A model generated the notes under the pieces. The model was given only the letters and a program-made list of their open reading frames with translations, was not told where the DNA came from and made no database searches. Shown one piece after another: positions 25,553 through 53,266 of a stretch of 64,000 nucleotides of DNA. The DNA is taken from assembly GCA_905178155.1 (NCBI GenBank), contig CAJINV010000003.1:6291985-6355984 (forward strand), written 5' to 3'. Both the position numbers and the translations under genes were made by a program. The stretch comes from Amoebophrya sp. A120 (lineage: Eukaryota > Protista > Dinoflagellata). The first letter of the stretch is position 1; the number at the start of each line of letters is the position of its first letter.

Positions 25553-28500
25553 TTATTGCAGCGAGTCCGAAGGTTGCAGAATGCCATCGTCGTTTCCGAT
25601 CTTGTTTCGAGCCACGGCTTTGACCGGGGCAGTGGGTGGCGCCTTCGTTGCCGCGAACGTAAAGGTATTGTCATTTTGCGATGAACTCTCATCGGAAGAG
25701 GACGTCAGTGCCTGCTTCTCTTTTTCTAAAGCCAGTCTTGCTTCTTCCTCCGCCTTCTCTCGCTCTTTCTTTTCTGCCTGCAATTCATCCGCCTTCTTCT
25801 TCGCTTCAAGCTGCTGCTTGTTGTCATGTATACGCGCGTCCTCCTCTTGTATCAGCTTCGCTGCTTCCTCCTGCGCCATCTCAAGCTTTTCCGCGTCGGA
25901 TATTGGTGGCGGTTCGCTAGGACGGTGGGTGCCCGGCTCGTGCTCGCGCCCGCGGCGAGGTGAGACTGCAGCTCGAGTGCGCATCCCCCTGCTCTGCATG
26001 AGCTTCAGCGCGCGCGGTGACGGCGACTGGGTTGCGCGCTGCGGGCTGGGACTTGCGTTGCGGCCTTGTTGGCTGTTCAACACCGCCGCACTCCCGACCT
26101 TATGCTTGGTCAGCATGACACTGACGCCTTCCCCCTCCGGCTGTCCGAGAAGCGCGTCCTCCTGCTCCCGCAGAAAGGCGCTCTGGCCCTGGAGGTATGC
26201 TTCCATCCGCTGTTGGAAAAACTCCACTCGAGGCACGCTGTGCTCCGCCAGCTCCTGCAGAATTTTTTCATCCTTCTCGTCCTTCGCTTTGTAAACCAGT
26301 TCGTTGCTGCAATCGCGACACAAGAATGCGCTCGGGAGCGCAGGTAGTCGCTTTCCACCCTGCGCAATCTTCAGTGCGGCGCTGAAATGCTCCGCGATCT
26401 CGGCCTTCTCTCGGTCCGCCCGAGCCAACTTTTCGTCCCGCAGGGAGATCATGTGGACCAACCCAGCCACCTTCTCCTCCGCACTCTGCTTCGCGAGCAG
26501 GGCATCCGCGGCACGTTGCTGCTCCTCTTCCAAAGTCTTTTGTAGTGCCGTCACACGGACTCTCCAAGCCCTGGTGGGAAGATGTTTGTTTGATTATCAT
26601 ATAAATTTCAGTAGCGTAGTTGTAGCGAGGAGTCTCGCTCCGCATATGCTGCTTGCACGCAGGTGATCAGAATAATCTTTTTTTAGTGCACGACCTTACA
26701 AAAGAAGAACCGAAACTCCGGTCGAGGTAAAAACAAGTATTGTTTGTGTAATCTGTACTGCCGACACGCATCTTTCAGTCCCTGGAAGCTCCGATTCAGG
26801 AGACTCTTCCATTTGCGCCCCATGAGCTCGACCAGCTTCGCTTTGGCTGCCTCTGCCACGCGCGTCCGCTCGGTATACTGCGTCAGCATGAGCTCCAAGT
26901 TGGCACATTCGCGCGTCTTGATATCGAGGTCGAACTGCGTGTCCTTCAGCCTGGTCTCCACCCGCTCGATGTGGTTTCGCAACCGCAAAACCTTCATATC
27001 CAGCCAGTTCTTCTGCATCACGCGGAAGCATTTTTGCGAGAGGAGAAACATGAGCTGCCGGTTGATCATCCGGGCCTGCTCCGCCATCAGCCGCTCCTCC
27101 ACGGCCTGCTGCAAAAGCCGCTCCTTCTCGACCTCCTTCAACTTTTCCACCAGATTGAAAACCCGCTTCTCCAGCGAGTCGATTTTGGCCTCGTACTTTT
27201 GTCGGAACGCCAGAAACGCCCACGCGGTGAAGAAGTTCTTTTGCCGCCGCTGTCCTAAAAGGACGTCGTGCAGATACCGGTCGAGCCGCCTGAGTCGCTT
27301 GATTTGCTCCCCGAACTGCACGAGGAAACAGCTCGCCCACCGCCGGCGCCGCTGTTTGACGGCGAGCAGGGTCGCGAGCCTGGAGATGCGCGTGTTCAAC
27401 CGGTCCTCCACCTTCAGGAGCGCGTCCTTCATGCGCGCCAGCTCGAAGCGCAGCGAGACCGCGGAGTTCTTCGTCGGCGCCATCATGCACTGCATGAACT
27501 CGATCACGTACTCGTGCGACACGTCCTTCGTCCCCAGTTTGTGCCAACACACGGTCAGCGAGTGCTGCACTTTCGCAATCTTGTCGGAAATCTTTTCCAG
27601 CTGATTCTGCATCATTGCGGCGAACCGCACCTCGTTGATTCGCCCGCTATCAAAAGGAAAAATCCCCCCTCCCCATATCGAAAAGGTATGCCCCCGAAAA
27701 TTTGTGTTGCTGATTTGAGCCTTAGTTCCCCATGATATCCGTAGGCCAGACGTCGGGGGTCCCTCACCCGACACGCCGAACTTCCTCCTTCCACACGCAG
27801 CGTCGGAGGGGTCGCACGTAGCCCTGGAGGTGATAAACGAGGGTGGCGCCTGTATATGCAGTAAAATACTGCACAGGAAATGAGGAAGTCAGAAAGGAAC
27901 ACAAATGTTCTGGGATGACTGTTTAGGAACATCCCAACAACCTCCGCCAACCACTGCCCTCGAATACACAAGAGAAAGCCGAAGCTAACTCAACTCCGGA
28001 TACCCTTCCCGAAGCTGACCTGAACCGCCTTTCTCCACAGGTCAGCGACGAGGCAATGCCCTGAGGGGACCGTTAGGAACCTCCCCAAACAATCGTCATG
28101 TCGTTTCGCCGAAGCAAAACAGTCTGACGAAAGAGACGCTCTACCAGTACCCAGCGGCAAGTACACGGTAGGCATGGGCATAGGAGAACCGAACCGCACG
28201 ACCACTCGACCGAGGTAACCCAGGGGGCCCTGTCCGTAGCAGCCCTGGGGACCAAACGACAGCGACGGAGGAAAAACAAAAGCCAAAATGACTACCAGTC
28301 AAGCAGCACAGGAGCGTGAACACGAGGGAGCACAGACAGGGGAAGAACCCTTGCTGAGCCCGGGCACAGCCCCATGAACCCGCCCCCACACCGCAAGCCC
28401 CGGAGCAAGCTCCGATAGCCACCCTGACCCCGTCTACCCCCGAAGCAGCGTCGGCAAGCGTGGACGAACTCCTGGCAAGAGCCTCGCGCAACGGGAATTT

Positions 28501-31500
28501 CCCGCCAGGCTCAATCCACGAGAGCCCTGAGTGGAAGGCAAGACGGCCTCGCTCAGGAGAAGCAACAGGACCCCATGGTTCCAGCGTAAAGTCGTCCACC
28601 TCCGTGTCCACGCACCGCAGGTTCCGTATAGCAACGTAGGCCAGAACCGCCGATACTGCAGCCACCGCGAGCACGAGAGCCGCTAGAGAGGAGGTGTAGC
28701 CAGTTAGGGAGTGAAGCTACGTCCTCCTCTCCCGAGAGAACGTTCGCGATCAAGTCCAAATGCGCCGACGCCGCCGCGCACGTATGACCCACCGCTCCTT
28801 GTCTGGGACGCATCGCTACTGAAGAAGAAGCAGGAAAACCGCGCCACGCATCCCGCCGCAAGTACGCCACCGCCAAAAAAAAAGGGCACCACCGCACAGG
28901 GACCGGCTACTATGCCTACAAGCCTGACCTCAACGCATCTTGGGAGTCCGCGCCTGCGCTTGTGGCGGCGATCGGGCCAGAACGCTTGTGGTCTGACTCA
29001 GACTTGTCTGCATGGTACACGCAGGAGGAAGTATTGCTGGCACCCACGGGACCCGAGGTCCACGACGACGACCGCTCGCCAAAGACATCCATACGCGGCA
29101 GAAGACGAACCCGAAAACCCGCACCAACCCGCCGCAGGCAACCCACCACCATAAGGAGCCCCACCGCACAGGGACCGGCCACCTACCATGCCTACAAGCC
29201 TGACCTCACGCTTGTGGGAGTCCTTGCCTGCGCTTGTGGCGGCGAACGGGCCAGAACGCTTGTGGTCTGACTCAGACTTGTCTGCATGGTAACCGAACAA
29301 GGAAGTATTGCTGGCACCCACGAAACACGATGTCCACGACGCCGTCCGCTTAACAAAGAATTCCATACGTGGCAGAAGACGAGCTCGAACCAGCGCAGCA
29401 GAGAGCCGCCGCAAGAAGCCGCGTCGCCTTGTAGAAAACCACCGGCCAACAGAGAGAGTGTCAGCGACGAGTTCCGACCTGAGATCAGTGTGAAGAATAA
29501 GTAGTTCATCACAGGAGTACACAAAGAACAAGCATATACGAAAACACCAACTCATAGCGAATTGCAACACGCAAAGATTTTGTCCCTGATCTCCCCGCGC
29601 GTCTGGGCTCTCCGCTGGTGGGCGCGGCATCCACGTGGATCCGGTGCAGAACCCCGCTCCGGCATAAATCCACACTCCTCTATGAGTAGCCCGCCGAGAC
29701 TGCAAAGCCGCTTATACCGTACCGGAGGTCCCGACCGGCATGCACGACATGGAGGCGTGGAAGTCCGCATGCGAGAGGCCGGAAACCAGAGGAGCAGGTC
29801 GCAACGGACGGGGAATGGCTTGTAGACGAACCCCAACACGATCGGACACTCCGGAAGAAGTCGGCATCTCTTCGATCAGCCGCGGGCTCGCGAGCTGGCC
29901 GCTTGTCCTGGCAGCGCCCGTTTACTTCGGAGAGCCCACCTCGACGAAAGCCAGCCACGCCGCAGAGAGAAGATGTAATGCGCCCGGGCCGCTGACGGAA
30001 ACAGAGGGAGAGGGCGAGAGCCCTGCAGGGCTCTAAACATGATGCAGATTTGAGACCACAAATCGTCGCTGTATTGCATGAAGGCAAGTCTACAGGCTCC
30101 GCCACATTCTACGGGCGGTTTGTCATGCTGTTGCTCCTACAGCGTAGACTTCTGCCATGCTAAGCGCCTAGGCCAAAACTTGTCTACTCAGGCCTGATAT
30201 GGGCCTGCAGTCCTCGCCAGCAAGACAAATCTGATTTGTGACCTCAAATACAGCATCACAAATTTCGTTTTCGATATGGGGAGGGGGGATTTTTCCTTTC
30301 GATACCCCCTGAACCTTCTTTTTTTCCGTCTCCCCCACGGTAGTTGCGGCATGGTCAACTTCGACCTTCTTGTTCGATGCCGTACTACCAGCGGAGGCCG
30401 TCTTCAATGTTGCCCACGGCGGAGGGGTGCGGTCGACTGCCTTCTCTTTTTCCGCGCTGTTCGTCTTCTCCACGACACTCGTCGGCGGAGCCACACCATA
30501 ACTCTTGTAGATCTTGGCAATCTTGGCCTGCAGACCCTCTTCAACCTTCGACTCATATTGCACGGCGTCGGCGAAAAAACCGCGGGAATTGTTTGATCTA
30601 ATTTTGAACCAGACCCCTACTTCGAGGGTTTGTGGCAAATGCATAACCGACTGCAGGAGCTGGTCGAAGTGTTGCATCGCCGCTTCCTTGCCTTCTTTGA
30701 AGTCCGCGGCACTTACTGCCAGCGCTCGAACGGTTGAGCAAGTCATGTGGTCCAGGTCCACCAAAAACCCCGACCGCTGGAACTTTTCCTGCGCCCCAGC
30801 TATGGTGAACGTCGATTGCTGAGCAGCACTCGCGCCAACAAACACATGATTGCCCACCAATTCGATCTTCAGTACCCCGTACACATTCAGTTTCTTCCTC
30901 TCCAGTTCGTTCAAAGTCGGTCGGTCGCGTCGAAGCGCAGCTCTAGCAGGGTCGAAATCGCTCTTCGGAAAGGCGTCCGCGTGGTCCGCTCGAATCCTGT
31001 CCACTGCTTTCTCAGCAACGAGGGCAGCATTTTTCGTTGCAGCAGGGGTCGTACCGACGTCCGTATCCTGCTTCGCGGGCGGCAGAGTCTTTGGCTTGTT
31101 GCTGATTTGAGGTCACAAATCACAGCTGTCTTGCAGGAAGACAAGGGCAGAAGCTTCGCCCCCATTATGGAAGCGATTAGTCATGCTGTTGGGCCTAAAG
31201 GGGAGCCGTTTCGCATGCTGAGCAACTAGACCCATACGCCCCTACCTAGCCTGGGGACCTGGTCGCAATGCCTTACTGCAATACAGAGCTGATTTGTCTA
31301 CACAAATCCAGCATCAGAAGTTCCGTTTTGAAGATATGGGGTGGGGGGATTTTTCCTCTCAATACCCGCGGTCCTTGAACTTGGTGCGCTCGATCACGTC
31401 GGAGTAGTGCAGCCGGTTCAAAATATCCATCCCGTACCCCCGCCACTTGAAGCTGTCGAATTCCTTCAATAGCGCCCCCATGGACAGCCGCATGCGGTAG

Positions 31501-32000
31501 GCGCCGGCGGAGATGCAGCTCAAGTCCTCGAAGTACACGGAGTCGTAGTTCTTGCGATCCCGAAGAAAGCTGGCGACGCCCTCGATGCCGTCCAACTTGA
31601 GGTACTCGGGCCGCCGGTTTTCCTCCTCGAGCCGCGCGCGCCTTTTGGCCTCCTTCTTCCGCTTCAGGTTTTCCTCCAGCAGCCTCTGTTCCTCCTCGCG
31701 ACGCAGCCGGTCCAGCAGCTGCTGGTCGTTCTCGGCTGCCGCCGAAGAATTTGGATTCTCCTCATCCGTCATCGAGGCCGGGAACTTCAGCACCTTCTCG
31801 CCCGTTAGCCCAACCATTTCTTCCAGTGCGCTTTCTTTTTCCGGAGGCACGGCGCCTTCCCGTCCGTCGGAAGCTCCGGCCTGAACTTCTCCAGCGGCCT
31901 GCTCAGCAGGGTCCATTTTCTTAGCACTCTCCGCTGTGCCCCGGGTCTCTTCCCCGTTTGGAAGCAGTTCCCCTTCCTGCCGCTCTTCGTTCTCTTCCAT
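25553..32000 (-). CDS. Coiled-coil protein, 3 exons (~32000-31365, 27642-26759, 26570-25553), first intron is a 3.7-kb composite element
   Basis: KFKDRG|RINEVRF joins in frame across the 5-bp repeat cccgc; CRQ|AWRVRVTALQK joins across a GT-AG intron; E/K/R-rich heptads. Confidence 0.75.
27720..30039 (-). mobile_element. Inserted GC-rich element 'X', probable decayed/non-autonomous non-LTR retroelement
   Basis: Bounded by the introner target motif on both sides (27705-27719, 30040-30054). Frameshifted minus-strand fragments in RT order: LRRLSAALVRARL, ADSQDA, PRQGAVG, EVDDFTL, GYLG. The insertion is clear; the RT identity is tentative. Confidence 0.5.
28889..29430. repeat. Diverged ~272-bp tandem duplication inside element X
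   Basis: ccaccgcacagggaccggc...gggccagaacgcttgtggtctgactcagacttgtctgcatggta...ggaagtattgctggcacccacg at 28889 and 29161. Confidence 0.9.
30040..30304. mobile_element. Partial family C introner (one TIR, truncated at the target motif)
   Basis: Colinear with the reverse complement of 52723-52985; ends gatatggggaggggggatttttcctttcgata; lacks the other ~57 nt including the second TIR. Confidence 0.85.
30305..31096 (-). other. Captured coding fragment (~263 open codons) without its own start or stop
   Basis: Frame open from PKTLPPAKQD... to ...KKKVQG, ending exactly at an introner TIR and beginning exactly at the 15-bp duplication. Confidence 0.65.
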
Positions 32001-33062
32001 ATTAACGCTGTTCCGGGAGTCAAGAGGAATATTCTTCTCCTCCCCTTCGGAATCGGATTGTTGATCGCGTCATGAATGACCCATTACGACTCAAATGAGT
32101 AAATTGGACGAAAACCGCCTCGGAACAATCGTGTGGGACCGACGGGGCAACATGTTGTCCACAACCAGAGGTATTCTCCCTAAGAAAGCTAAGCCCCGTG
32201 ATGAACACGTGCACGCAATAGAGGCCGTGGCGGTCTGCATCACGTGGAAACATGCATTCTCTTTTTGTCAAAACAACGATACACGACAACGAAACAAAAG
32301 GCGAGACGACCAATGCGAATGGCGTCACCCCTTATAAACCGGCCGAGAAGGGTGACTCTGGCAATTGAGCACTGTGCTGACGACGATAAGCTTGCGGAGG
32401 TCCCATGTATCATGGCTCACTGGTACCGAGCACGACAAACAAACTTGCGGATCTCCCATCATGTATCACTCGTATCTTCACATCGAACTCTTCTCCCGGT
32501 TAGCTATCTGCTGGACACGACACGTCGCTTCTATCACCAATCACTCGAGCACACACCACGATATCAATTTAAGCCATGAAAAAATGAGCCGAGTAATACG
32601 GTGCTGTACAGAATTGCCAAGAACCGCGGCTCTCTCTGCAGAACTCCAAACATCGTACCTTCGGTGTTTTGCAATGGGAGCCCAGGCGGGAGGAAGGTTT
32701 TTAGTCAGCTTTACAGATTACCAGCGAAAATTGTGGGCGTGTTCAACAGTCAAACAATGTTGGCACCCTGTACCCCACTTGATATTCAAGTCGCAAATTG
32801 CCCTCGAGAAGGAACGACCTCTGCTGCTCCTCGAATTAAGCAATCTAATTGATGTTGGTACTGAATCTTGTACTAGCTTGCGAAAGTTTGCGATTTTTTG
32901 GCATTGGGTAAAGTGCTCAAGCTCAGATGTGGTTTGTACGCATAGGAATAAATCATCTTACATTTACATTTTTCACTGAAGTACTTCGTACACGGAAACG
33001 CGAAGATAGCGCGGACATGGCAAATGCGTCGAAAAGAAGCCGCCTGGTTTCCAACACAGCTT

Positions 33063-37659: not shown

Positions 37660-40600
37660 CTATAATATACGCTTCTGAGCGGAGTGGGCGTCGTGCGCGT
37701 TTCCGGGTTTGGAGCTCAGGAGGGTGGGCATCTGGTGTTCCGCGCGGATGGCCTGCGCCACCTGCGGCGGGGTTTTGACCGTGTTCACGGTGGAAACGAA
37801 GTCGAAGTTTTCGTAGCGGATGCGGTCCATCGTGCGAGTGTGCATTGCAACTATGTCTGCGTCTGGAACACTGCAACTTGTGATGCAGCTGTGGCTGAAG
37901 TAGAAAGACAACCCTCTGTATTGCGTAGTCAGAAATCAACAAGCGCGCACTTTTTGTCTCCCCAAGAGCGCATTTCTCATGCAGAGACTAGGCATGGAGA
38001 GGCCTCCGCGCATCTTGTCAGGCTCTGCGTGCTTTCCAGAACTATTTGCAGGTCCACAAGCTGTATGATAAACGTCTACATTCTTCTTCCAGACCCAGAC
38101 TACATATTTGCAGTTGATAGCGAGACAGGTTCTGCCAGTGCGGCAGTGGCGTCTCCTTGTGCTGCGGGAACTTACTGGTGTCCAGCGTCGAACTCACCTT
38201 CGGAATAATCGGCGCCGTCTGCTGGTAGAGGTTGCCGAACTGCAGGTTCTGGAAAAACTTGTGCTGCTTGATCTGCGCGAAGGCGAGCCGTTGCTGCACC
38301 GGTGTGACCAAACTGTTGAGAAGCTCAACCGCCGGGTCCTTCAGATAGCCGGCCTGTCGCCCCCGCTGGACCGCTTTGCCGAAGTAGTGCTGCCACTTTT
38401 GGATCTTGTAAATCACACGGGTCACCTGACGAACGAGACACATCATCGTCGATCGAAACTTCTTATTGTCATTCGACGCTACTAGGAAGTTACTGGATTG
38501 TAGTGAGCACACACTCACGTAAGCATAATTTCATCTCGGAAACCAGCAGCAGATAGATTTCAAAACAGCCACGCAGCCTCGATGAACCATTATGTAGAAC
38601 AACAAGATCAAATCAAAACAGGCGAAGAGACTCGTACACGAAGTACCGCATCAGCCTTCTGGATCTGTGGCGGCTCTGCCTCGCCCACGCGTGGGTTGAA
38701 CGGGGTAGAGCCCACCAGGCAATCATACATGACGACGCCAGCAGCCCAAAAGTCCACCGCCTTTGTGTAGGGTAATGCATTGTAATTTCGGCTTCCACTT
38801 CAGGGAGCATGCAGTTGTGTTGCGTGACTTGCAAATTTGGTTGTCTATGATGAAGCTAAAAACAGAAGAGCTGTGCATGAGTCACAGCAATTTAGGTTCT
38901 GAAGTGTATCCGTGCTACTCGTCATGAAGGGTACAAAACATCAGCGAGCCAACCTTCCGGAAACAAAGGCGAACATGACCAAAGTAGTTGTCCTGCAGCT
39001 CTTTTCCTGAACTATTGCCATATTTTGCAGCGGATAATGTTTCGCGATTCACAATTTCTGGTGCCATGTACTGTGGTGTTCCGACCCAACTGTTCAAGTG
39101 GCGCCGCTTGTCCTGCTCCAGCGAATGCAGGTACTCCCCAACCGTAACCTTCTCATCGTTGTCATCGTACATAACCTGGTAGGTACGTAGATAACATAAT
39201 AATTGTGTGTACGATGATGCTCTGTTCATCCCAAAGCAAAACTTATCATCAGTCACACCCGCGTGGCGCTTGACTTTGTTTTTGATTCTGTGTTACTCCT
39301 ATCTCAGGAACACTAGTGTGGTCCTTACATCACTACAGTCGTAGCACAAGGTCAAAGCAACAAGGTCACTATAATACGTGATGCGAGGGGAGCTGCTTCA
39401 AAAAATCCGCCGACTCTTTGTAATGATCGACCACCTCCTTGCAAAGTCCGAAGTCCAGCAATTTCAAGTGCCCTTGTCTCGAAAAGCAGATGTTGTCGGG
39501 CTTGATATCGCGGTGCACGAACCCCAGCTCGTGGATGAATCCCAGCGCCTCAATCAGCTCCGCAATGTAGAATCGTGTCTCTGCCTCCGACAAACGCTTT
39601 CTGTCACACAGCAAACTGATCAAATCACCCCCCTGTAGGTGATTTTTCGCTCACGGATCCATAATTCTCTTGAGACACTAAAAACAACAGTTCGAGTAGG
39701 ACAACGCCAAACGATCACGGGAAAAACGTTTTCGTGTGTGCCAATCTGTATTTGGTAGATTCACACGATTTTGTTCAACGAGCCGCTGCTGTTGCGGGAA
39801 GCACAAAGATAACCAACGTATGTGCTCTCTTCTGGGGGAGGAGCGGACAGCATACGTCGAAAGCACGCCTATTAATTTGATGTCTCATCAAGTACCTGCA
39901 GAAACTCCATGATCATAAACAAGTGGTGATCGTCCGCAAAGCAGGCGTATAATTGCACGAAGTACTGGCCCCCGCTCCCGCCGAGTGCCACAAGACACTT
40001 GCGCTCCGCCATTAGGCGGGCCAGATCATTTTTCTTCGGGAAAGCCGTCTTCTGCATCTGTTTCATCGCGAACACTTCCTTGGACTGTTTGTGCTGGACC
40101 AGGCGCACCACACCGAACCCACCCTGTCCCAGAGTCTTCACCACGGAAAAATCATCCGTCCTCCAACCGCCGATTTCTGCCTGCAGTAGCCTGTGAAAAA
40201 TTTTGATCGATGAATCGATGGGATCTAGCAGTAGCGCCACCGCAAACTAAAACCACCACGAAATTACCAATGTAAGGAAGTAAGTACATACAATGTAGTA
40301 GCATTCAGGAGGTACAATTGCGACGAAACAAGCGCTTCTACTTCTCTTCCTGTCGTCCCAGCTCCGCCTCGAATCTCCTTTTCTGATCGGAAGTCATTGG
40401 CTTTGCTAGACTTCTTGCCTCGATTTGTCGCTCTTGCCGCATTTTATGAAACCACGCGACGCGAGTGTAAATCAGTGCTGGCATAATGAATTATCATGAC
40501 TACATGCACATGGCGGGTATCGGTAAAGGTTGGCACTAAAGATCGATGGAGAAGGACCACCCATCAGACACAAAATAACACCATCGATACACCGTGTTTG

Positions 40601-40807
40601 TCACGTTTCATACGCGTAGGCGGTGTCCCAGTGGTGCTCCACATGCGTATCGATAGCTTCCTTGAAAGCCTCCACATCTGCTGTGGTGTAGCCCCCCTTC
40701 TGCAACTTCGGCACCTGCACGTCCCGACTGAGGGCGTGTAACTTGCTGAGCTCCCGCAGCTGCGCCTCCTTGCGTGATACCTGCTGCGGATTTTGTTGCG
40801 CGTTCAT
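37660..40807 (-). CDS. AGC-group Ser/Thr kinase, NDR/LATS-like, ~7 exons
   Basis: [38 protein letters not shown], long activation insert, [14 protein letters not shown]-terminal DTSKF and YENFDF motifs. Confidence 0.88.
37839..38119. mobile_element. Introner family A
   Basis: Ends tgtgcattgcaactatgtctgcgtctggaa / ttccagacccagactacatatttgcagttgata; perfect gcgag flanks; in-frame NLSR|TMDRIRY. Confidence 0.88.
38774..39036. mobile_element. Degenerate introner-like non-canonical intron in the kinase
   Basis: No in-phase GT-AG found between APEIVNRET and YTKAVDFW; minus-strand start TATCCGCTGCAAAAT and weak TIR; same size class as the other introners. Confidence 0.6.
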
Positions 40808-41593
40808 GTTTGCCCGAGAGTTGAATCAGTCTTGATGGAATTCCGATACTTTTTAAGTAAATTTGGTCCCAACAGGCGATGATCATAGATTTCTTAATGC
40901 TTCTTGAATTTTTACGCGGCCTCTCACCCTATACTTAGTTGAAGCCACGTACTGATCTCATTTCGCACGTACACCGGCCGCCTTCTTGAGTTTTGCCTCT
41001 AGTGCAGCCCATTTTTTCTCGACTCCCTGGCCCTTTTGCGACGCTGGTCATCGTCCCTCATCAGACCCATTGTCACAAACAGATGAGATTTTTCAAGAAC
41101 TATTTGAAATACTGCTGGAACCCACTAATATTTTCCATTGTGAACAAAAAAGCGCCGACTCGCAAAGCAGCGTCCAAGCACCATCGCCGTGCTTCATGTA
41201 GATGTGCTTTATGCCAACGGAGTGCTTTACGCCATGCGTCTCTCTCGCCTCCGCCTTCTGGTACATTTTAAGGATATCTAGGACAGCTTTCGCGCCCTCG
41301 CTGCTGGATACCAGGAACGGGCTTCTACTTAAAATGATTTTTTCATGGCAGGCTTGATTCAACAGCTTCTCCCTACAGAGAGAAACCTGAACTTCCGCAC
41401 TGAGGAGTTTCCACAGTGCATCGACATCTCTGGCATGATGGACGATGTGGGCATTTACTACAATAAAAAATCGAAACGTAAAAAGAACCAAGGCGTCGTC
41501 GAGTATAGGATGCGGAAAAGGAAAATTTTGCAAATTCGTCTTTTGAGAGAACGAAAGGAACGCTTCAACATTGTCCGTGCCTAATTATCAGCT

Positions 41594-44211
41594 TCATTGT
41601 TCTTGACTTTTTCGCTCTTCCACGGAGCCCAGGGGTTGGTTGCGGGGAGACATTGTTTTGGACTCGGAAGTCCGGGCTTTCCGCGCGCTCGCGCCCGTGT
41701 CATCGGGCACCGACTTTTTGAAAGACGAGGTAGTCACGCTTTCGCGGCGGGCGAGACCCTGGATAAACTCGGAGATACGGGCGCCGCTCGCGTTGCCTGG
41801 CGAGGCGGCCGCCAACGGGTGGTGGGGCTCCAGCATGAAGTTCTGCCCACCTCCCGGAACGGACTTGCTGCTGGCCCGAGATTCCCCCTCCGTCGGGGAG
41901 TCCGCGTAGCCGGGACGCTCCTGCATCGGCACAAACTCGCGCCGCGTGCTCCCCACGTACAGCTGGCGGGGCCGCCCGATGCGCATCTGGTCCTCCTGGT
42001 GCATTTCCAGCCAGTGCGAGCACCACCCCACGCACCGCGCCATGGCGAACATGACCGTGAACATGGAGGTGGGGATACCGATGGCGCGGAGGATGATCCC
42101 CGAGTAGAAGTCCACGTTCGGGTACAGTTTCCTCTTCTTGAAGTACTCGTCCGATAGCGCGATCCGCTCCAGTTCCATCGCCAGTTCCAAGTGCGGGTCC
42201 AGCACGTCCAGGTCGTTCAGCACCTGGTGGCACAGCTTGTGCATCTGCTGCGCGCGGGGGTCGAAGTTCTTGTAGACGCGGTGTCCGAACCCCATCAGCC
42301 GGGTCTCCTTGCGCTTCACCTTCTCCAGGAAAGTGGGGATGTTCTCCTTGTGCCCGATCTCCTCAAACATCTTGATCACCGCCTCGTTGGCGCCGCCGTG
42401 CGCGGGGCCCCACAGACTCGCGATCCCCGCGGCCACGCACGCGTAGGGTTTTATCCTATGTAAAAACGTCCCCACCCCATAGTCAAGATGGGGAATCGGC
42501 TAGACAAATGCACAAGTTTCGGCTCTTTTGCATGACAGATTTGGACTCGTAGTGTAGTGCTGTTTGAGCTACCTGAGCAGCATCACAGATCTAGTACACC
42601 ATGCTGATTGGAGCATGACGAATTCCAAAAGACGACTAGAAAATGCTTCTCATGGGGCTCCGCATGAGAAACATGCTCAGCATGCAGATTTGCATTACAA
42701 CTATGGGATGGGGACATTTTTAAATGCGATAGGGTTGGCCTGGGAGCTACCGGCAATGCGCACGGTCGACGTGGAGGCGTTCTGCTCGTGGTCCGCGTGC
42801 AGGATCAAAAACACGTCTATCGCCTTGGCGTGAATGGGGTTCACCTTGTACTCCTCCAGCGGGGTGGCAAACATCATGTGCAAAAAGTTCTCCGCGAAAC
42901 CCATCTTGGCCTTCATTTTGCATATAAAAGTTTTGATCATTGAAAAGCGCATCAGCAACACAATTTCTAGTTGGTGTACTTACTCGTGCTAGGGCAGATA
43001 AGTACAGAAAACGAGGACCACAACATGTGAATCCTGCCCGTCTCATTCTTTTAGTACATAAAGCACTACGGAACGACACCTCGACAAGTTACTTTTTGCG
43101 GAATTGTACAACGAACTTTCTACCTGCGGCCACACGGCCGGTTCCCCCAAGTGCGTTTTGTATGCCAGGGCCGCGAGCGTCGGAAACTTTGCTACCATCC
43201 GGATGGTGGCCAGCCATCGAAACTCGGGATCCGACTGGTCCAGTTCGCTAAAAAAAGCCGAGAGCGCACCGGTCACTGCTACCATGATCGCCATGGGGTG
43301 CGCAATCTGCATTGCAAATATGCCTGGGTCGGCAAGGATGCGAACTTGTAATGCAGCAAACTACTCAGGAGCATACCAAAAACAAAATGTGTGTTGCATA
43401 AGCTCCTACCCGTCATCTCCTGCTCGATTATTAATGGCGAATTTTCATTTTTCATGCAGGATAGGGCTTGGAAAGAATGCCCGAAACAAACCTGTAATGC
43501 TGCAGTGTGCGTTTCAGGTTTGTCAGCGTGAACCTGATGCAAAACCTGCATGACAAAAAAGCGCAATCTTCCCGACCCAGACACACTTGCATTTGATACG
43601 CATCCATTCGAAACGATTCGAACATACGCTTGAGCTTTTCATGCACGAGCAGATTGGCCTTGATCTCCTTCTGAAACTCTTTCAACTCGTTTCGGTTCGG
43701 CAGCTCCCCCGTCATCAACAAGAAAGCCACCTTGTGATTTATGTGCGGTACAAAATGAAGGGCTCTCTCTTGATGAAACAGCCTGAGCGATCCAGTGCGC
43801 CGTTGCCTATATGATTTTTGCCGACGAACGCGCACTAGGATAATTCGTCGGCGGGGTTTTTTTCTTCAAACGGACAAGAAAGTAGAAGTACAGTATGCGC
43901 GGCGACCAAGAGTAGAAAGTTATGAATACCTCGATGAAATTGGATTTGACGCACAGCTCCTCGATGGGAATGCCACGATAGCAACAAATTCCTTCATTGC
44001 CGTCGATGAAGGTGATGGACGACGAGCAGGAAGCGGTGCAGGAAAAACCGGGGTCGTAGGTGAAGGCGTTGGTTTTTGCGTACAGGTCTCGTATGTCCAG
44101 GAACATCTCCGTACCCTCAGTCCCCCTATACACTTTGATCGAGTGTTCCTTTCCATCCGGGAGCTTGAGGACCGCAACTTCCTGCTTCGCCTGGCCGTTT
44201 GCATCCGGCAT
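41594..44211 (-). CDS. Citrate synthase, type II (GltA-like), 5 exons
   Basis: [81 protein letters not shown]. Confidence 0.95.
42452..42731. mobile_element. Introner family B
   Basis: TIRs tatcctatgtaaaaacgtccccaccccatagt / actatgggatggggacatttttaaatgcgata; flanks ggttt/gggtt; restores SSQANPYACV. Confidence 0.88.
43306..43598. mobile_element. Introner family A
   Basis: Ends tctgcattgcaaatatgcctgggtcgg / ccgacccagacacacttgcatttgata; flanks cgcaa/cgcat; restores the conserved FRMDA|HPM. Confidence 0.88.
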
Positions 44212-45886
44212 CTTTTGTTCTCTTCGGAAGATTGAAGCGCAATCAAGAGGTAAAGAAATATCAATGTCTTCAATAGCAAATACTTCAGCAGTTAAAGACC
44301 CGTATCGTACATTCAAAAACTTCTAAGGCTCAAAACCGCTACCGAAGTCAATTAGGCAGCTTACTTTATAAAATATTTTGTCGTCCGTTCCAGAGGAAAA
44401 AGTCCAAAAAAAGTGACCGGTTTCTCACTGTCACTGTCCATCATAAATATATAGAAGAAAAGCGACGGACATATGTGGTCTTCCTGAGTAAGACGGAACA
44501 ATCACCACAGTCTGGTCCGGTGTCGACTTCACATACGCCAAATTGAAGTGCCGTGCGTCGCTTGCTCGCCGCTCAGAAGAAACTGAAACTCGTTGAAGTG
44601 TGTCCTCGCGCGTAAGAACAGGAATATTTGCGCACGCACGCTTTCGTTTGTCATTTCACACCCCCGCTCAGATGGCACTTGTGCATGTATCCTTCTCCAT
44701 GGCATAGTATCTCTTTTTCGTGTAATAATGTGGCGGGACCGAACACGGACGAGATCGTGTGTTTGTTCACAAGAGAAGATGATATTTCAGATACCATCCA
44801 GCTGCGGACAAGGCGAAATTGTTTCTATGCGAGATGATGGGGCGGCACTGATGTTACTGTATACCTGATGTTTTTTGTTCGCGTTCCGTTGCGGGGCTGC
44901 CGCGCAAGAAAGTTGGTACAATTTCAGACGTATAACCTGCGTCGAATTTGTGGCGTTCCTAATGGTTCTGATGTTTCGAAGCACTGCCTTGGGAGCCAGA
45001 TAGTCAGTCTCGAAAGACTGCCTCAGCTCCAGTCAGATGGTTCTGCTACTCACTAGCCGGTTGAAGCGTAGTGGCAGCACTGCTCTAGGACGCTATCGAG
45101 CAGCATTGCGCTGCCTCAAATCATCCCAGGTCGTGTATCTGAATACGTAGTATCAGGCGTTGCGGCTGTACGTAAGCCGCAGGGTCTTGTACATAGGGCT
45201 GAAGATATGTTAACTGTGATGTTGGGGTTACGGATTCTGAAATATGTGTACAGAGGTGGATCATGTTGTAGCGCGTTGTTTAACAAAAATCCTAAATGCG
45301 GCCGAAATATGCGAAAAAATAGCGCTTTCCAAAAATTTTGTATAATGATACTTCTGATAGCGACTCACAACAATAAAATTCATTTGCAACTTTTCCTTCC
45401 TTCGGAACTGAGCAACTATGAGATATCTCGTCGCTGCTGAGCGCATCTGAAGATTAGTGCATCGCCTGTACGCAGCTATTGCTTTGTCCGGCGCCTGACA
45501 TACCACATTAACGTAGTGGCGCTTGATATTTTGAATTGTAATCAACTGAATTAACCATTCTGACTCTGTGAAATTGTAAATCAAAAGTAAAAAAATAGAA
45601 AGTGCTTGTAATCCAACATAAAAAAAGTGTGTCTGCTTCTGCTTGTGATACTTTAGTGTAAACAACATGATAACATAAAAAAGTGATAAGCATAAAACTA
45701 AAAGTAACTGAATCTGTGCTTCAAAAAAAATGCTGATGAACCACCTCTACTTCTTCTTTTCGTGCCATGGGACTACATAGGTATCAAAGCCGTCGTGAAA
45801 GTGACTGCTCAACTGTGGCAAAAATCTGGTGTATTATACAATTCATCGATGCTACTGCGCAGCCAGAAATGACTGTGATAGCCTAT

Positions 45887-48800
45887 TTAGTCCTCTTCGT
45901 CGAGCGCCTTGATGGAAGACAAGGAAATGTAAACACCCCAGAGCGCGCAGAAAAAAGCGAAGGTAGCCCACTTCGGCCCGGCCGGTCCGCCCAACTCACC
46001 GCCGTAGAGGTATCGTCGCAGCACGAGTGTCCCCAGGCACGCGAATGCGGTCAAAGTGAAAATCGTCACACTGTAACCGAGGGAGCCTGTAGTTTGTTTC
46101 TTTTGTAGATTGAGCCATAATTTCGTCATCCCAGCAGCATCATCAAAGCGCTAATGCTAGAGTGGAAGTGGCAAGAAAGTAGTGTTCGTGCACCCACTAG
46201 CGTTGTGGAATTCGAATTCGAATTCTCATCGCGTCGCGGAACAATGATCGGTGACCACACGACAATAAGAATAAACACCGTAGAAGCAATCATAAGTTTA
46301 CCTGCAACAACGACAAAGCCGCCGTCTTTCAGGTCTGGGTTTGTCAGCAGTGACAGCTTCTTCTGCGCAATCTTCGCCTCCCACTCCGGTGTTCGTCCCT
46401 CCGCATTCCAGTAGAAAGCACCGATCATCCACGGCAGCCCCAATCCGAGGAATACCTGTGTGGCGCAAGGGCAATACGGGTGTGTAACTAATGGCACTTA
46501 TTTTCGAAATGACAATGAGCCAATACAACCCCAATATTAAACGATGCATCATCACCAAATTTTGGCACCAAAGATTCATTATTTGAGCTTTCTTCTAACG
46601 TAACCTGTATAGTCGAACGAAGTCTGGCACAACCGCAACATGTGACTACAACAATCAAAACCCAAAGCAAAAACAAAAGCAAGCACAACTTTTCTGTGTC
46701 TAATACGTTGACGGAATTTGAGCCGGTGACGTTGCCGACGGAGGCGTCGGCGTACTCGTCCTGTTCCGCCGAGGTTTTTGAGGCGAACAAGTCGGGCAGC
46801 GAGGTTCCCAGGGCCACGAAGGTGATCGCGGTGACGGAGGCCGGGAGGCCCAGCACGCACCCGAGCAGCGCTATGGATTGCAAATATGTCTGGGTCTGGA
46901 AGGTTGCAACTTGTGATGCTGTTTTTGGATTCTAAAAAAACTTGTATTGCATGTCCAGCAAGAAAGGTCCAGTTTGTGCTACGCGGACAGGGCATTTCTG
47001 ATGCGGAAGGCGCATCAGGAAGCCCTCTAAAGATCTGTGATGCTGGGTCATGCAATACAGGCACCAGGGGCCGTGAGAAATATGCATGACAAGTCTTGCA
47101 TTCTTCCAGACCCAGACATTTTTACATTTGGTAAGCGCGGCCAGGTCGCCAATGATGGCGGTGAGCACGCTATCCTGAGTAAAAACATCCCCACCCCATA
47201 GTTGTCATGCAGATTTGCGATTACAGGAAGATTTGTAATGCGCATCTCCATGAGAGGCATTTCCAGTCGCGTTTTGGAATTTGTAATGCTGTAAACAGGA
47301 TAAACAGATGGATTCGTGATGCGGTTGTCCTCGCTAACATGCACTACACTACGGACTGCACTTTCTCATGCGTGGCGTCCAAAACTTGTGGATTTGTCTT
47401 GCTAGGTTCCCAACTTGACTATGGGGTGGGGACGTTTTTATATATGATACACGCCGATCATGATCAGACTGCAGAAGAAGCAGACCCAGCCGTTGGCGTA
47501 GTCGGTGGGGGGGACGATGGCGAACAGCAGTTTCCAGAACACGGTGAGAATGTGGAAGACCCAGTCGCCGGCGCCGGCCTCCGCCTGCTCCTCGGGAGAC
47601 CCGTTCACGTACAGGGCGGACACAAACTGGTCCCGGTAGTTCGCGTTGCCGATCGCCATCTTGTCCGCGTTCACCTTCAGAAACCCGGTGGCCTTGTCCA
47701 CCAACTGCTTGCGTTCCTCGTTGGGAATGATCGAAATGGTGCAGATGCCCGACTCCTCGCCGCCGTCCGTGTCCGCGGAAAACGAAGCGCCACCCGTCGC
47801 CTCGGTCAAGATGACTCGAAACTTCTCCAGCGCCTCGTACCGACCCCGGGCCAGCACGCGCACAGATATCACTTTCTCCACTTCGCCCGGAAGAAACGTC
47901 AACTCGCCTGTTTTATTACAAAATAGAAAAAGATGATGAAAATATTTGGCTCATTTTGAAATCCTTCCAGATTCGACAAGGACTGTTTCCCGACCATCAC
48001 GCCAAGGGGACGCGAGTGGCAGGAACAGCAGCTGCACGCATCCACGTTTGGGAGAAACAAGGCGCATAGATACATCTACAGATAGGATACATTTGTGTTT
48101 TGTCTTCACGGAAAATACTTATGCATAATTTCAAGCTTAGATCAAGGCTACCCATGCGGGTTCTATTGATTCGCAAATCCAAAAAATCCTAGTTTCGAGG
48201 GCATAAAGATGCTGTAGAAATAAATTCACATTCTCCTCGTACCTTCAATGTGTTCATAGTCGCGGTCCTTGGTCGCGCTATCTTCCTCCGTTGCGTATTT
48301 GCAGGTCACCGTACCGGTACTACCGCCGCGGCGCTGCACGAGGATCTTCTGGGTGCAGTCCTCTGTGCTTTCTTGTAGGTCCAACAATTCCTTCTCGAAG
48401 CAGAACACACCCGGCAGGTCGTCGTCGATAATCGTGATCTGTTCACAGTTGGTAAGGAAAAGGATATTTTTGCAGCTTTATTTCTTGGCTAGAGATACTA
48501 TAGCTAAACTTCCGTGAATGAAATCCGATGGACTCACACAAAAGACATCATTCTGAAAATGGCTATGACGGTGTTGAGCAATAGATACTACTTTTTTAAG
48601 AACTTGTACCAAAAGTATAGTTGGGTACTATAAATCTCAAGTGTCTAGTTACCGTGGCGGTTTCCTCGAGTTTGGGGATCTCGACGGTAACACCGGGCGG
48701 CCCGCTGGCCTCAGACAGATCGACGTAAAACAGCTCGTCACCTTCGTAAATGTCGTCGTCAATGATCTCTACCGTGACCGTCTTCTCGGCCTCGCCCGGA

Positions 48801-50951
48801 TTGAACGTCAGTGTGCCCTCAATGTGCACAAAGTCCTCGCCCGCCGTCGCCGTGCCATCCCGGGTGGCGTAGCGGATGCTCAACGTGCCCTCGGTGATGG
48901 TGCGCTTCACGGCCATGTTGATTTTTTGCCCGGATTCTAAAATGGCAAACGTCGTGCCCTCGAGAAACCTATCAAGTGTAAAAATGTCTGGGTCTGGAAG
49001 AATGCGCGACTTGTCATGCAGATTTTCCATGACCCATGAGGTCCGGAATGCAGGACCTAGCATGACAGATTCTGCGCGATCTCTCTCATGCCTATCCTGC
49101 ATGAGAAACTCCCTCCCGACTTGGTCAAAACTGGACGACTTTTGGCAATCATGCAACACAGATTTTTGCATGCTTCAGATTTCGCATGACAAGTTGCATT
49201 CTTCCAGACCCAGACATTTTTACATTTGATAAAACCCGACCTCCATCACGTTCTGCTTGCCCTTGCGCTCCTTTCCCTCCGGCGAAATGGTGTTCGAACC
49301 GACGGAGCCCATAATGCTGCTCACGCCGGGGATCCGAATTTTCTTCGAGCCGGTACCCCGCCGGGTGGCTTCCACACGCCGCGCGGCTCGGCTGTGGGAT
49401 TGGGTCTCGTAGGCCATAATCTGGGCCAGCTGCTCCTCGCTCAGCGGCGCGCCGCCGTGCTGCTTCTGAATCTTCGCCGTCAGCTCCGCGAGTTCCTCCT
49501 TGGTCAGATCGGAAGCTGAAATCACACTTGACGTGGTCGTCTTCTGGCAGAGAACACCGATATCCGCAAGGTAGGCTGTGAGGAGTCAGAGTATGAGAAC
49601 GTGGTGAACTATGCACATCATGCGCAGGTTTTTATATTATCGAGTCTATCAGTATCAACAGGACAAGGATGTTGATAAGTATGTTCGTTTAGGAGCAGTC
49701 CTTTGTGCTCAGACCTCGGCTTTGGCTTTCATAGGGACTTGCTTCGTCTGAGCCCGGACCTTGAAATAAAGCTATTGCTACTCAACATTTATTTTTATAT
49801 AGCCAAGAAACTTACACTAAAATTACACTATATCATATCAACTTCTATACCAATCAGGACTAAAACGGGGAAGTAAAGGAAGGAAATGACGCCCTCCGCC
49901 ACGGTGACAATGTCCTCCGTGGTCCACTGCAGGATGACGAGGAGCCAGATGTAGGCCCAGACGGAACAGATCGCAGTGATGGCGAAGACGCCCAGGTCCT
50001 TGATTTTTCTGATTTCGCCACTGGGAATGGCGATCACGCACACCGCGATGATTACCAACAGATTAAAGGCCGCGGACCCCACAATGGTAGAGGGCCCGAG
50101 CGCTCCGGAGTGAAAATCTTCGCTGAAAAGCTCAATGCAGGAAAGCAAGATTTCGGGTGCGGAACTCCCGAGGGCCATCAGGGTAAGATTTGCCACAGTG
50201 TCGTTCCACACTTTGATTGTTGTTGTTCGTCCGCTTGCTGGATCCCTGATCGTCTTCTTCACTGAGGTCACCTTTTCAATCGCGCCCTGTAAAGTCGTGA
50301 GACATTGAAAAATACTAAAACAGTTCTTGGCCTCCTCACTAGTCGCTACCTTAGTGGAAAATCAATCGAATCGTGGTGGAGCAGGAAAATGAATCGTGTA
50401 GTCGCTTCTCATGGACGAGTACAAGCAACTGAAAGTTCTTGAAATAGTCCAGGCCCATGTAGACATACAACATTGAATATCACGCACAGCCGTAGGAAAT
50501 ACAATGTAGTGCAAGCTTCTTAGACAAAAAACTATTATACCATAAAGACGTCGGCGATGATAGCAACGCCCAAGAAGCACCAGAGCGTGCCGATGAGGTA
50601 GAGGAATTGACGAAGTCCCTTTGGCCAGTCGACGTTTTCGTCATCGCCAAACAGGGGGAGGAGAAGGCCGGAGCCGCCGGCCTCGCAAATTTCTGGCTCT
50701 TTTACCTTCACCATGGTAACTGTAACCGTAGCGGTTGTCAACTGCCGCTGGACGTGCTCGTTCACGTGCGCGGAAAGTTCTTGGGCGTGCGCGACCACCT
50801 GCCGCGACACTTCCGCCATGTGTTCGGCGACATGCTGGGTCGTGAGGTGCAAAGCACCTTCGGCGGCGTACGAGGTGCTCGAGCTCGCGGCGCCCGTGCC
50901 CACCAGCAGCTGGGCTGGTGCTCCTGCTGCGTAAAAATTCTCTCCCGCCAT
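45887..50951 (-). CDS. Na+/Ca2+ exchanger (NCX/SLC8-like) with two Calx-beta domains, ~10 exons
   Basis: alpha-1 repeat [23 protein letters not shown]...[13 protein letters not shown]; Calx-beta [10 protein letters not shown]...IIDDDIYE; alpha-2 repeat [15 protein letters not shown]...[15 protein letters not shown]. Confidence 0.95.
46872..47133. mobile_element. Introner family A
   Basis: tatggattgcaaatatgtctgggtctggaag / cttccagacccagacatttttacatttggta; perfect agcgc flanks; restores IGDLAAL|LGCVLG. Confidence 0.92.
47171..47449. mobile_element. Introner family B
   Basis: tatcctgagtaaaaacatccccaccccatagt / actatggggtggggacgtttttatatatgata; perfect cacgc flanks; restores LIMIGV|LTAII. Confidence 0.92.
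48970..49231. mobile_element. Introner family A
   Basis: tatcaagtgtaaaaatgtctgggtctggaagaatgc / gcattcttccagacccagacatttttacatttgata; perfect aaacc flanks; restores MEVGF|LEGTTF. Confidence 0.92.
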
Positions 50952-51923: not shown

Positions 51924-53266
51924 TCACAGTTTCGAAGTTAGCACAGGTGGATCGACATCCCTATGTTTGCCGCTTGGCGGTGGTGGGGTATGCATCAACT
52001 GTTCTACGAAAGAATGCACGAGCTTCTTGTATTCCGCTGGCGAGCTCGGCAAAATACAGCAGTGCGGTGCCGAGGAAAAAACGACCGCGGTCACCGGATT
52101 CACCGTACTGGGTACGCGCCCGGTTTCCACGTCATACAACCGAGAAGCGACGTACTTAACCCGTTCCCGCATGCAGGCGCGGATGAACCACGGCTCACAC
52201 AACGTGTCCGCCTCGGAGAACACAAACTGCATGTTGCTCTGCGCGTTGCACAGCCGCGCGACGCCCCGCAGGAAGACTTTGTTGGTCGCCGACAAGTTCT
52301 TGCACTTGGTCTCGTTCGATGCTAAGGGCGTGGCGCTTTTGATGGTGATTTTTTCCTTGCTATCCGTGGTCTCCGCCATCACACTCTGCAGCCACTGTGG
52401 CAACCCGAAGGACATCACCCGCGCGAACACGCTCCACCGGAGCTCTCCCGGGGCACAGTCCATCCACACGGCCCTGGGAGCGGTTACCACCTTCAGTTCG
52501 TGCACCAGGGTGAGCATCAGGAACGTCCCGTTGTTGGAGAAGCAAAAGAACGCGCCCCGCGTCGGGTCCCGTGCATCTTCTATTACATTGGCCCCGTCGT
52601 CGTGGTCGGGAGAGGTCGTGGGTGGTGATGTTGAAAGCTCTCGCCGCACCACTTGAATCAGCTCCGTCGCGAACCGCCGCCGAAACCATGGCACCAGTAG
52701 CTCCTTCCCCCCGCATGACGTCAATTGAAAGGAAAAACCCCCCCTACCCATATCAAAACGAAGCTTCTGATTTTGGATTTGCGTACACAAATCAGATTTG
52801 TCTTGCTGGAGAGGACTGCAGGCCTATACTATGCCTGCGTAGGGAGGTTTTGGGCTAGGCGCTCAGCATGACAGGCGACTTGTCTTTAGGGCCAACAGAA
52901 TCACAAACCGCCTGTAAAATGCGGCGGAGCCTGTGGGGTTGCGTCCTTGCAAGACAGAGACGATTTGTGGTCACAAATCAGCATTGCAAATTTTCTAAGA
53001 TGTATCTTTTCGACATGGGGAGGGAAGATTTTTCCTTTTGATAACGTCTGTATCACGTTTACGGACTCCGGAAACAGCTCGGAGTACTTCGCGACCACGT
53101 CCGGCGTCGAAAATGCCCAGCCGAATACCCAAATCGTGTGCAAATGCTGCTTTTGCGTACTCGTTTTTTTACGCTCCCGAATATACACTGTCGGACCGCT
53201 TTTGGTTTTAACGGCCCGGAATCTCGAGAGAGGGGACCCAACATCTTCGGGATGCGCAGGGGGCAT
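51924..53266 (-). CDS. TMEM53/DUF829-like alpha/beta-hydrolase-fold protein, 2 exons
   Basis: WVFGW, FSNNG, MDCAPG, FVFSEADTL, FSSAPHC...PAEY in the family order; the exons join in frame (VIQT|SCGGK) across an introner. Confidence 0.7.
52723..53043. mobile_element. Introner family C, intact 321-bp copy
   Basis: aattgaaaggaaaaacccccccta / ggggagggaagatttttccttttgata; perfect acgtc flanks. Confidence 0.9.

Follow-up and report, generated by a model that had tools for sequence, protein, structure and literature searches.

Can an introner, itself a mobile intron, serve as the fixed target of a second mobile element? The locus that raises this question lies in a 64-kb stretch of the Amoebophrya sp. 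A120 assembly (64,000 nucleotides, hereafter the window), where a family C introner with terminal inverted repeats (TIRs; 27648-31364) within a conserved Amoebophrya gene is split by a 3377-bp insert (27720-31096). A120 introners are described as having inverted repeats that start with TAT and a direct repeat of 3-5 nt (PMC7789003), and the outer element has the same anatomy, with TAT...ATA ends and a perfect 5-bp flanking duplication, CCCGC. The host gene corresponds to the public A120 protein P0003, whose function is unknown and which has P0004 and P0005 as orthologues. All three proteins read across the insertion point of the outer introner, and the host frame is restored once the introner and one CCCGC duplicate are removed. 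If 27648-27719 is made to run straight into 31112-31364, the resulting element of 325 bp can be aligned over its full length with an intact family C copy at 52724-53043 (233/320 aligned letters), in which the target site is present once.

The original prediction held that the insert is flanked by a perfect 15-bp duplication and that two different family C copies are interrupted at the same site, and both statements proved correct, coordinates included. The 15-mer at 27705-27719 recurs exactly at 31097-31111 (15/15), and a 13/15 variant lies at 30040-30054. The insert is a composite of an element that we call X (2320 bp), half of a second family C introner (C2; the outer copy is C1) and 792 bp of coding sequence of another gene (Table 1). 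That the last 792 bp belong to another gene, and that X has no coding signal, had not been part of the prediction. The retained right part of C2 (C2R, 30040-30304) comes from a different family C copy, with 186/265 letters alike to the outer one, and starts at the exact homologous base. Its TIR is identical to the outer left arm at 36/37 positions, compared with 30/37 for the outer right arm. An empty sibling in the public run X1 has a normal left arm directly before position 30040 (a loose contig end). Since the site at 30040 differs from the outer site at 2/15 letters, X joined C2 before reaching C1. A two-step model, in which host pre-mRNA was copied first and X inserted later, was rejected because the right flank of X is C2's version of the site and not a duplicate of C1's.

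Table 1. Features of the split introner, its insert and the host gene (positions in the window).
Feature	Position	Strand	Remark
Host gene exon 1 (P0003 residues 1-212)	31365..32000	-	100% tblastn match
Host gene exon 2 (up to P0003 residue 507)	26758..27647	-	tblastn
Left CCCGC copy (5-bp target duplication)	27643..27647	.	sequence comparison
Right CCCGC copy (5-bp target duplication)	31365..31369	.	sequence comparison
C1L, outer family C introner, left part	27648..27719	.	includes TIR 27648-27684
C1R, outer family C introner, right part	31097..31364	.	includes terminal inverted repeat
15-bp target-site duplication, left copy	27705..27719	+	overlaps motif repeated in several introner families
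15-bp target-site duplication, right copy	31097..31111	+	likely 5' junction of insert
Element X, 2320 bp, non-coding	27720..30039	-	fixed end 27720 (putative RNA 3' end); copy depth falls towards 30039
Internal direct repeat in X (28821-29136 and 29101-29413, 80% alike)	28821..29413	.	without codon-position bias
Perfect 18-bp palindrome, 5 bp inside right end of X	30017..30034	.	sequence
C2R, second family C introner, right part	30040..30304	.	begins at same target site (30040-30054, 13/15)
Captured coding segment of second gene, 792 bp	30305..31096	-	cut mid-frame; open for 263 codons
Uninterrupted family C copy, empty-site reference	52724..53043	-	sequence alignment

The captured coding segment matches residues 192-418 of P0001 (7/227 residues differ) and residues 1-37 of P0002, and the source gene (models CAD7939430-2) extends past both cuts, with P0001 continuing upstream and P0002 downstream. 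The segment has the orientation of the putative X RNA, and the captured part, including the introner half, is unspliced. An atlas search with the captured protein gave no usable match. The X/C2 junction is single-copy in run X1 (depth 48); together with the 7/227 differences to P0001, this indicates that the donor is absent from the data, a point against the RNA-copying model set out below, for which we assume that the donor was lost or is a different allele.

Further copies of X are apparent in X1, which may be the sample behind the assembly. At the left end of X (27749-27766) summed contig depth is ~25-fold the single-copy level set by host contigs, and from there to 30069 the best-matching contigs give 10, 4.5, 1.7, 1.5, 1.3 and 1.1 times single-copy depth, contig depth being a rough copy measure only. 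Two shortened copies lead back into the right arm of a family C introner at the target site, both with extra junction letters. One joins 28377 to 31098 (depth 97) through 11 extra letters, the first eight of which equal the target's 31111-31118, and then continues into the target site. The other joins 27741 to 30039 (depth 57) and consists of 22 bases of X, four target-like letters, a restart of X's first 12 bases and then the target site. Read with the caution due to depth, the gradient from ~25 to ~1 and these two copies show a fixed 3' junction with variable 5' truncation, and the target reappears after each copy, as it does with 15/15 identity at the locus itself.

All four junction sets seen lie at the target site, two of them visible only because they hit it; the two shortened copies came to light through re-entry into a known introner and thus do not form an unbiased sample. 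When X was compared alone, 0/6 listed X1 loose ends (each listed row being one contig) fell at 27720, yet the first depth bin needs cover left of 27720, from which we infer the flanks of the ~25 ends. No unrelated flank supported by several contigs was found at the fixed end among the matches listed, in which contigs overlapping X by only ~30 letters may be missed. The predicted site specificity of X finds some support in the two junctions in the window and in the two X1 copies. Runs X9 and X10, which contain short pieces only, were left out of conclusions on site and habitat. The target overlaps a short motif common to several introner families and is therefore conserved and abundant; the target motif has 23 matches in the 64-kb window compared with 1.5 expected, and 19 of these lie within 300 bp of introner ends.

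Element X begins with CC and ends with AACA, its plus strand is A-rich (612 A vs 327 T), and its longest internal stop-free frame is 237 aa. Pfam searches of 15 frames, 12 of them in or overlapping X, gave nothing above the cut-off. Neither a reverse transcriptase (RT) nor an APE or restriction-like endonuclease was found in X by Pfam, two homologue searches or a silent-change test; the homologue searches compared two X frames with longer proteins and are weak evidence, and silent-change enrichment was seen in no X frame. Rfam reported nothing on X at E 1, our own HDV-like descriptor gave 0 matches, and a hammerhead core scan gave nothing credible, scans by which a divergent ribozyme could be missed. 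ARAGORN found no tRNA-derived head in X, and folds of its two ends were no better than shuffles (z -0.83 and -0.48). Inspection by eye revealed no spliced-leader head at the right end. The fixed end has no poly(A) or short-repeat tail and X adjoins the target directly; R1 3' junctions are mostly precise too (PMC2718515). Diverged relatives share patches near 27872-28098.

A full-length relative with RT and endonuclease, as envisaged in the original prediction, did not emerge from two metagenome pattern scans and one viral pattern scan. A 22-mer of X's end had 0 matches in a metagenome scan, viral contigs gave 0 matches, and the sole locus from a 21-mer metagenome scan (L001) was rejected as a chance match, being phage-like and alike only in those 21 letters. 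With neither RT nor endonuclease and no partner found, X is non-autonomous at best, and its identification as an autonomous site-specific non-LTR retrotransposon of the R1, R2, Tx1 or CRE type fails for want of these enzymes.

In the reading that we consider probable, X is a non-coding repeat with a single fixed site in family C introners, into which it was copied from RNA; RT and site-specific endonuclease would be supplied by a non-LTR retrotransposon at another locus. What supports the predicted status of X as a retroelement is its anatomy alone (a fixed end, truncation from one side, the target-site duplication and extra junction letters); as no RT, endonuclease or partner was found, the retro step is one that we infer. 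X RNA would be the minus strand, as judged by how depth falls along X and by the two shortened copies, and would be made within the pre-mRNA of the host gene. The plus strand would be nicked after 27719 and prime cDNA from X's 3' end (27720), i.e. target-primed reverse transcription, with a second nick 15 bases off giving the 15-bp duplication. Most copies would stop early (5' truncation), and the copy at this locus may have read through all of X into the upstream donor transcript (5' transduction), carrying along the right half of C2, which would be the donor introner, together with a 792-base piece of the donor gene. The captured arm would leave a pre-mRNA in which a single left arm faces two right arms. 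An alternative, 3' transduction from plus-strand RNA, was rejected because it is the left end of X that is fixed and abundant.

Work on R1 and R2 describes a fixed 3' junction, variable 5' ends, a 14-bp target-site duplication (R1), extra letters and co-inserted flanking target (PMC2718515, PMC3414825). As characterized there, Drosophila R1/R2 and non-autonomous SIDEs resemble X in the fixed 3' junction, 5' truncation, target-derived 5' junction letters and template jumps; they likewise rely on host co-transcription, and non-coding derivatives use a partner's enzyme. X differs from R1/R2 in targeting dispersed introners and not rDNA and in having no detected 5' ribozyme, and it matches none of these families. 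Co-copying of an upstream host transcript, as proposed here, is also indicated for 5' transduction by SVA (by a title cited in PMC4494074) and by R1A carrying upstream 28S (PMC2718515), whereas the cargo here includes an introner arm able to act as a splice boundary plus ~260 codons of another gene.

A different and improbable explanation is that the target is prone to breakage, for instance where an introner transposase mis-cuts its binding motif, and that repair fills the breaks with copies of other loci, X being cargo and not a targeted retroposon. Overlap of the target with a motif repeated in many introners would suit this, the unspliced captured part could have been copied from DNA, and a mobilising enzyme was not found. 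However, in each of the four observed junction sets one and the same end of X adjoins one and the same side of the target, at ~25x single-copy depth, and repair capture would yield a clean 15-bp duplication less often than deletions or fillers of unrelated sequence.

It is less likely still that X moves as DNA by a one-ended rolling circle (Helitron- or IS91-like) on the plus strand; transfer would then begin at 27720, run past a hairpin terminator (30017-30034) and so pick up C2R together with the gene segment. The fixed left end, the 18-bp palindrome 5 bp before the right end, the A-rich plus strand, the fixed end free of a poly(A) or repeat tail and the unspliced introner half in the captured flanking DNA all agree with such a process. 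Helitrons start with TC, end with CTRR and make no target-site duplication; X starts with CC, ends with AACA and is flanked by a 15-bp duplication, the target site reappears after two shortened copies, and the target-copied junction letters better suit a template-jumping polymerase.

Very little speaks for a third scenario, insertion of X with little sequence preference followed by selection that purges all copies outside introners. Introners occupy 17% of the A120 assembly (PMC7789003), and our view of X flanks, among the matches listed, is incomplete. Selection accounts for a position inside an intron but not for the same base and orientation in one family; a random insertion would strike this base in one of 3,000 copies with a probability of ~1e-5 (using the 115.5 Mb size figure, PMC7789003), and for the present scenario the chance is put at ~1e-5 to 1e-4 per event. 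Misassembly between repeated introner copies, named originally as grounds for refutation, is hardly credible. No single contig spans the whole stretch and the left arm is closer to the inner than to the outer right arm, but neither the outer duplication of 5 bp nor the inner one of 15 bp has a mismatch. Contigs of X3 (a run with sample and study codes other than those of X1) match the window over 30305-31243 (3 differences) and 31228-32200 (0 differences), and one X3 contig links the captured segment to host exon 2. In X1, the X/C2 junction lies within a contig (29579-30069) that shows 0 differences.

Introners leave RNA via paired ends, so that in an ordinary insertion X and its introner would be spliced out together; in the public model P0003 the full 3.7-kb unit is treated as an intron and the frame is kept. 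A contig of run X3, which is RNA only by an automated guess plus low introner depth, joins 27642 to 30305 and omits the 2657-bp hybrid (2.66 kb, X-loaded) plus 5 bases; this joint is based on one contig with a short side of 29 (+3 ambiguous) letters. Such removal pairs the left arm with the captured inner right arm, a pairing worth -66 kcal/mol; for the outer arms the value is -53 kcal/mol. The inner, better-matching pair appears to be the one used for removal in the single likely-RNA run analysed, and the captured gene piece appears to redirect splicing of the host message. None of the runs containing the sequence is registered as RNA, and raw RNA reads of run X11 gave 0 alignments. The evidence on introners as a safe haven is mixed: the X-loaded unit is cleanly removed in the likely-RNA contig of X3, but by way of the captured inner arm, which would disrupt the host reading frame.

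Targeting of transposons by other elements has precedents. Tx1L of Xenopus laevis in Tx1D and the crocodilian Tx1-Mar / Tx1-9_AMi are non-LTR elements with a preferred site inside non-autonomous DNA transposons, which has been read as a safe-haven strategy (PMC6719617, PMC4494074). Those elements encode an RT and are placed by RT phylogeny, whereas X has no open reading frame by which to place it; in addition, the transposon targeted by X is an intron of protein-coding genes, so that the insertion is removable from mRNA. Transposon targeting as such is therefore not new, whereas no paper with introners as the target was found in the literature searched. While the outer element resembles the A120 introner elements in TAT-starting inverted repeats, short direct repeat and absence from the gene model, the available parts of the papers on them contain no description of inserts at a fixed internal site (PMC7789003, PMC12130899). 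Some A120 introners have been "attributed to non-LTR retrotransposons" (PMC12130899), and nested cases like X might be among them.

A broader picture that we put forward tentatively is that Amoebophrya has a retrotransposon system whose endonuclease is aimed at a conserved motif of its own introners and which lives, spliced away, in expressed genes. Its 5' transductions may move introner arms and coding sequence, the arms re-pairing to give new exon junctions, and non-canonical splicing may settle on whichever inverted-repeat pair is best or nearest, irrespective of the sequence enclosed. If true, mobile introns would join the targets of site-specific retroelements as a hiding place that is cut out of mRNA, and there would be an endonuclease to find and test, one that recognises some 15 bases and cuts with a stagger of 15. 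The locus would also be a natural experiment on boundary choice by inverted-repeat pairing. Its three arms offer a direct test of non-canonical intron recognition, a mechanism left open by the genome paper, and it shows a route for exon shuffling in a genome with ~30,000 repeated introns.

Introners, the TIR-bounded non-canonical introns of Amoebophrya sp. A120, are described in PMC7789003. The family C introner considered here, C1, interrupts a gene whose exons are 100% identical to the annotated A120 protein P0003; A25 and a JGI record supply orthologues at 57-66%. The window accordingly comes from A120 or a strain nearly identical to it. The reading KFKDRGRINEVRF is regained once C1 and one duplicate are taken out, and the same reading is found in P0003 and its orthologue P0004. 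When rejoined, the halves of C1 can be aligned over their whole length to an uninterrupted copy, and two contigs of public sequencing run X1 that link separated positions (27720 to 31113 and 27703 to 31096) are empty siblings of the interrupted introner. The 15-mer flanking the insert is therefore a true target duplication, and the insertion put forward in the original prediction is real. Misassembly is disfavoured because contigs of a second run, X3, across the captured segment, the right arm of C1, exon 1 and the exon 2 joint support the locus order.

Coordinates of features at the interrupted introner and elsewhere in the window
Feature	Position	Description
Outer introner C1	27648-31364	TAT...ATA termini, perfect CCCGC duplication
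15-mer duplication	27705-27719 and 31097-31111	Exact repeat
Element X	27720-30039	
Second family C introner, right part (C2R)	30040-30304	265 bp
Captured segment	30305-31096	792 bp, minus strand, open over 263 codons
Uninterrupted family C copy	52724-53043	Site present once
Introner-like units	56014-56579	Two of 219 bp, inverted pair, 90% alike, 128 bp between
Open frame	6079-10248	1389 codons, minus strand
Short direct repeats	10308-10509	After the 1389-codon frame, ~95-99 bp spacing

The insert consists of three pieces: X, the right end of a different family C copy, and an open segment. C2R starts at the base homologous to the C1 target, with 13/15 identical positions at the site and 186/265 overall, which confirms that a second, different copy was cut at the homologous position. 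A search of 1.84 billion representative proteins with the captured segment returned two matches, both partial A120 models. Residues 192-418 of P0001 align with it (7 of 227 different) and 191 further residues lie upstream of the cut, while P0002 spans its final 36 residues and extends beyond the introner position; the segment therefore derives from the middle of a gene at another locus. The boundary between the two models falls exactly at 30413-30414, where the captured copy reads straight through, and the source gene may have an intron or insert there that is absent from the captured copy. At three third codon positions (30726, 30735 and 30861) the window reads T,T,T, an X1 contig G,G,G and an X3 contig A,A,C, P0001 agreeing with X1 at 30861; this suggests unresolved assembly letters where two copies of the segment disagree.

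X itself is repeated in X1. Summed depth at 27749-27766 is 1050-1074, compared with 40 and 44.5 for host contigs, and the best-matching contigs along X have depths of 423, 189, 71, 62, 54 and 48 from left to right. This is a rough gradient from ~25 to 1.1 times single copy, in depth rather than copy number. In one contig X is cut short at 28377 and followed by 11 added letters, the first 8 of which equal the target's 31111-31118, before the introner resumes at 31098. Another exits X at 27741, adds 4 target-like letters and X's first 12 bases again, and resumes at 30039. Both shortened copies re-enter at the predicted introner site, but they were detectable only through hitting it and form a biased sample. 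In a less biased comparison of X alone with X1 contigs (63 aligned, 12 of them partially), none of the loose ends listed, at least six with a single contig each, lies at 27720. First-bin depth is 1600, of which X bases and generous overlaps explain at most ~1216, so cover on the introner side of the 27720 junction is required. This favours, without proving, the same introner flank for most of the ~25 left ends of X. X1 contigs at depths 367 and 234 match X solely in patches 27872-27975 and 28044-28098; these related families could include the 3' region of an autonomous partner. Diverged relatives spanning 28546-30031 (e.g., 23 differences and 9 gaps per 269 letters) extend almost to the right end of X, suggesting an old family whose natural full-length end lies near 30039.

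The fixed abundant end, variable other ends, target duplication and target-copied junction letters of X match the marks of target-primed reverse transcription in R1 and R2 (PMC2718515, PMC3414825). By these marks the 3' end of the RNA lies at 27720 and the RNA is the minus strand, also the coding strand of the host and captured genes. The simplest account is a two-event history. X would have inserted into introner C2 within a second gene, and pre-mRNA of that gene, with X's 3' end as terminus, would then have been copied into C1, halting 792 bases inside an exon. X joined C2 before reaching C1, since the version of the site on X's right flank is that of C2. In X1 the X/C2 junction occurs as a single copy, no donor locus was seen among the contigs, and the captured segment differs by ~3% from P0001 while this X differs at only 2/574 letters from the commonest X contig. 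We assume that the donor was a different, now absent allele, which would explain the single-copy junction and the ~3% divergence. A motif overlapping the target matches 23 times in the window, where 1.5 matches would be expected, and 19 of the 23 lie no more than 300 bp from introner ends, which makes the target a conserved and abundant place to land. TGTN(A/T)TGC(A/T)G recurs within several otherwise distinct TIR introner families (37839-56269).

Unlike autonomous site-specific non-LTR families, X gives no sign of coding: its frames have no Pfam match, the two searched have no homologue, and none is enriched in silent changes (27 changes between internal repeats; 36 listed differences from other copies). 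The enzyme for its insertion would have to be supplied from elsewhere. A retroelement targeting introners is partly supported, by the junctions and target duplication but not as an autonomous family, and X is likely a non-autonomous retroposon aimed at introners. It resembles SIDEs, known non-coding site-specific derivatives (PMC2718515, PMC3414825), and, in targeting a transposon, Tx1L in Tx1D and Tx1-Mar in Mariner-N4, non-LTR elements aimed at non-autonomous DNA transposons (PMC6719617, PMC4494074, PMC8869645). The targeting strategy is known, with X probably carrying it over to introners. Searches of open literature, outside subscription journals, for introners with target-primed reverse transcription and for dinoflagellate non-LTR target specificity found no description of introners as a retroelement target, and the available parts of PMC12130899 and PMC9860276 do not mention nested inserts in introners. 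Dataset S2 of PMC12130899 ascribes some A120 introners to non-LTR elements, and these entries may be relevant here.

Introner-end depth in X3, RNA by guessed label only, is 178-227 against gene depth of 24-55; this few-fold excess is small relative to the thousands-fold one in X1, so X3 fits spliced RNA. The first 29 letters of one X3 contig belong to the captured segment, and this contig matches host exon 2 at 0 differences, omitting 2662 bases, the 2657-bp unit of C1 left arm, X and C2R plus five. Two others are continuous through the captured segment, the right arm of C1 and exon 1, unbroken at the outer arm. A unit that includes 2.3 kb of X is thus excised cleanly, which supports the proposed safe haven for plain insertions. 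Here, however, removal appears to use the captured arm and would break the host frame, as judged from one run and one contig: the retained outer arm places a stop immediately behind exon 1, and the host frame is lost across the new junction. In the public P0003 model, by contrast, the entire unit is spliced out in frame, and the host frame has suffered no damage, so both spliced forms may exist. The left arm of C1 matches C2R at 36/37 positions (-66 kcal/mol) and its own outer arm at 30/37 (-53); its pairing partner appears to be the captured arm instead of its own. Of particular interest is that a transduced introner arm appears to redirect splicing.
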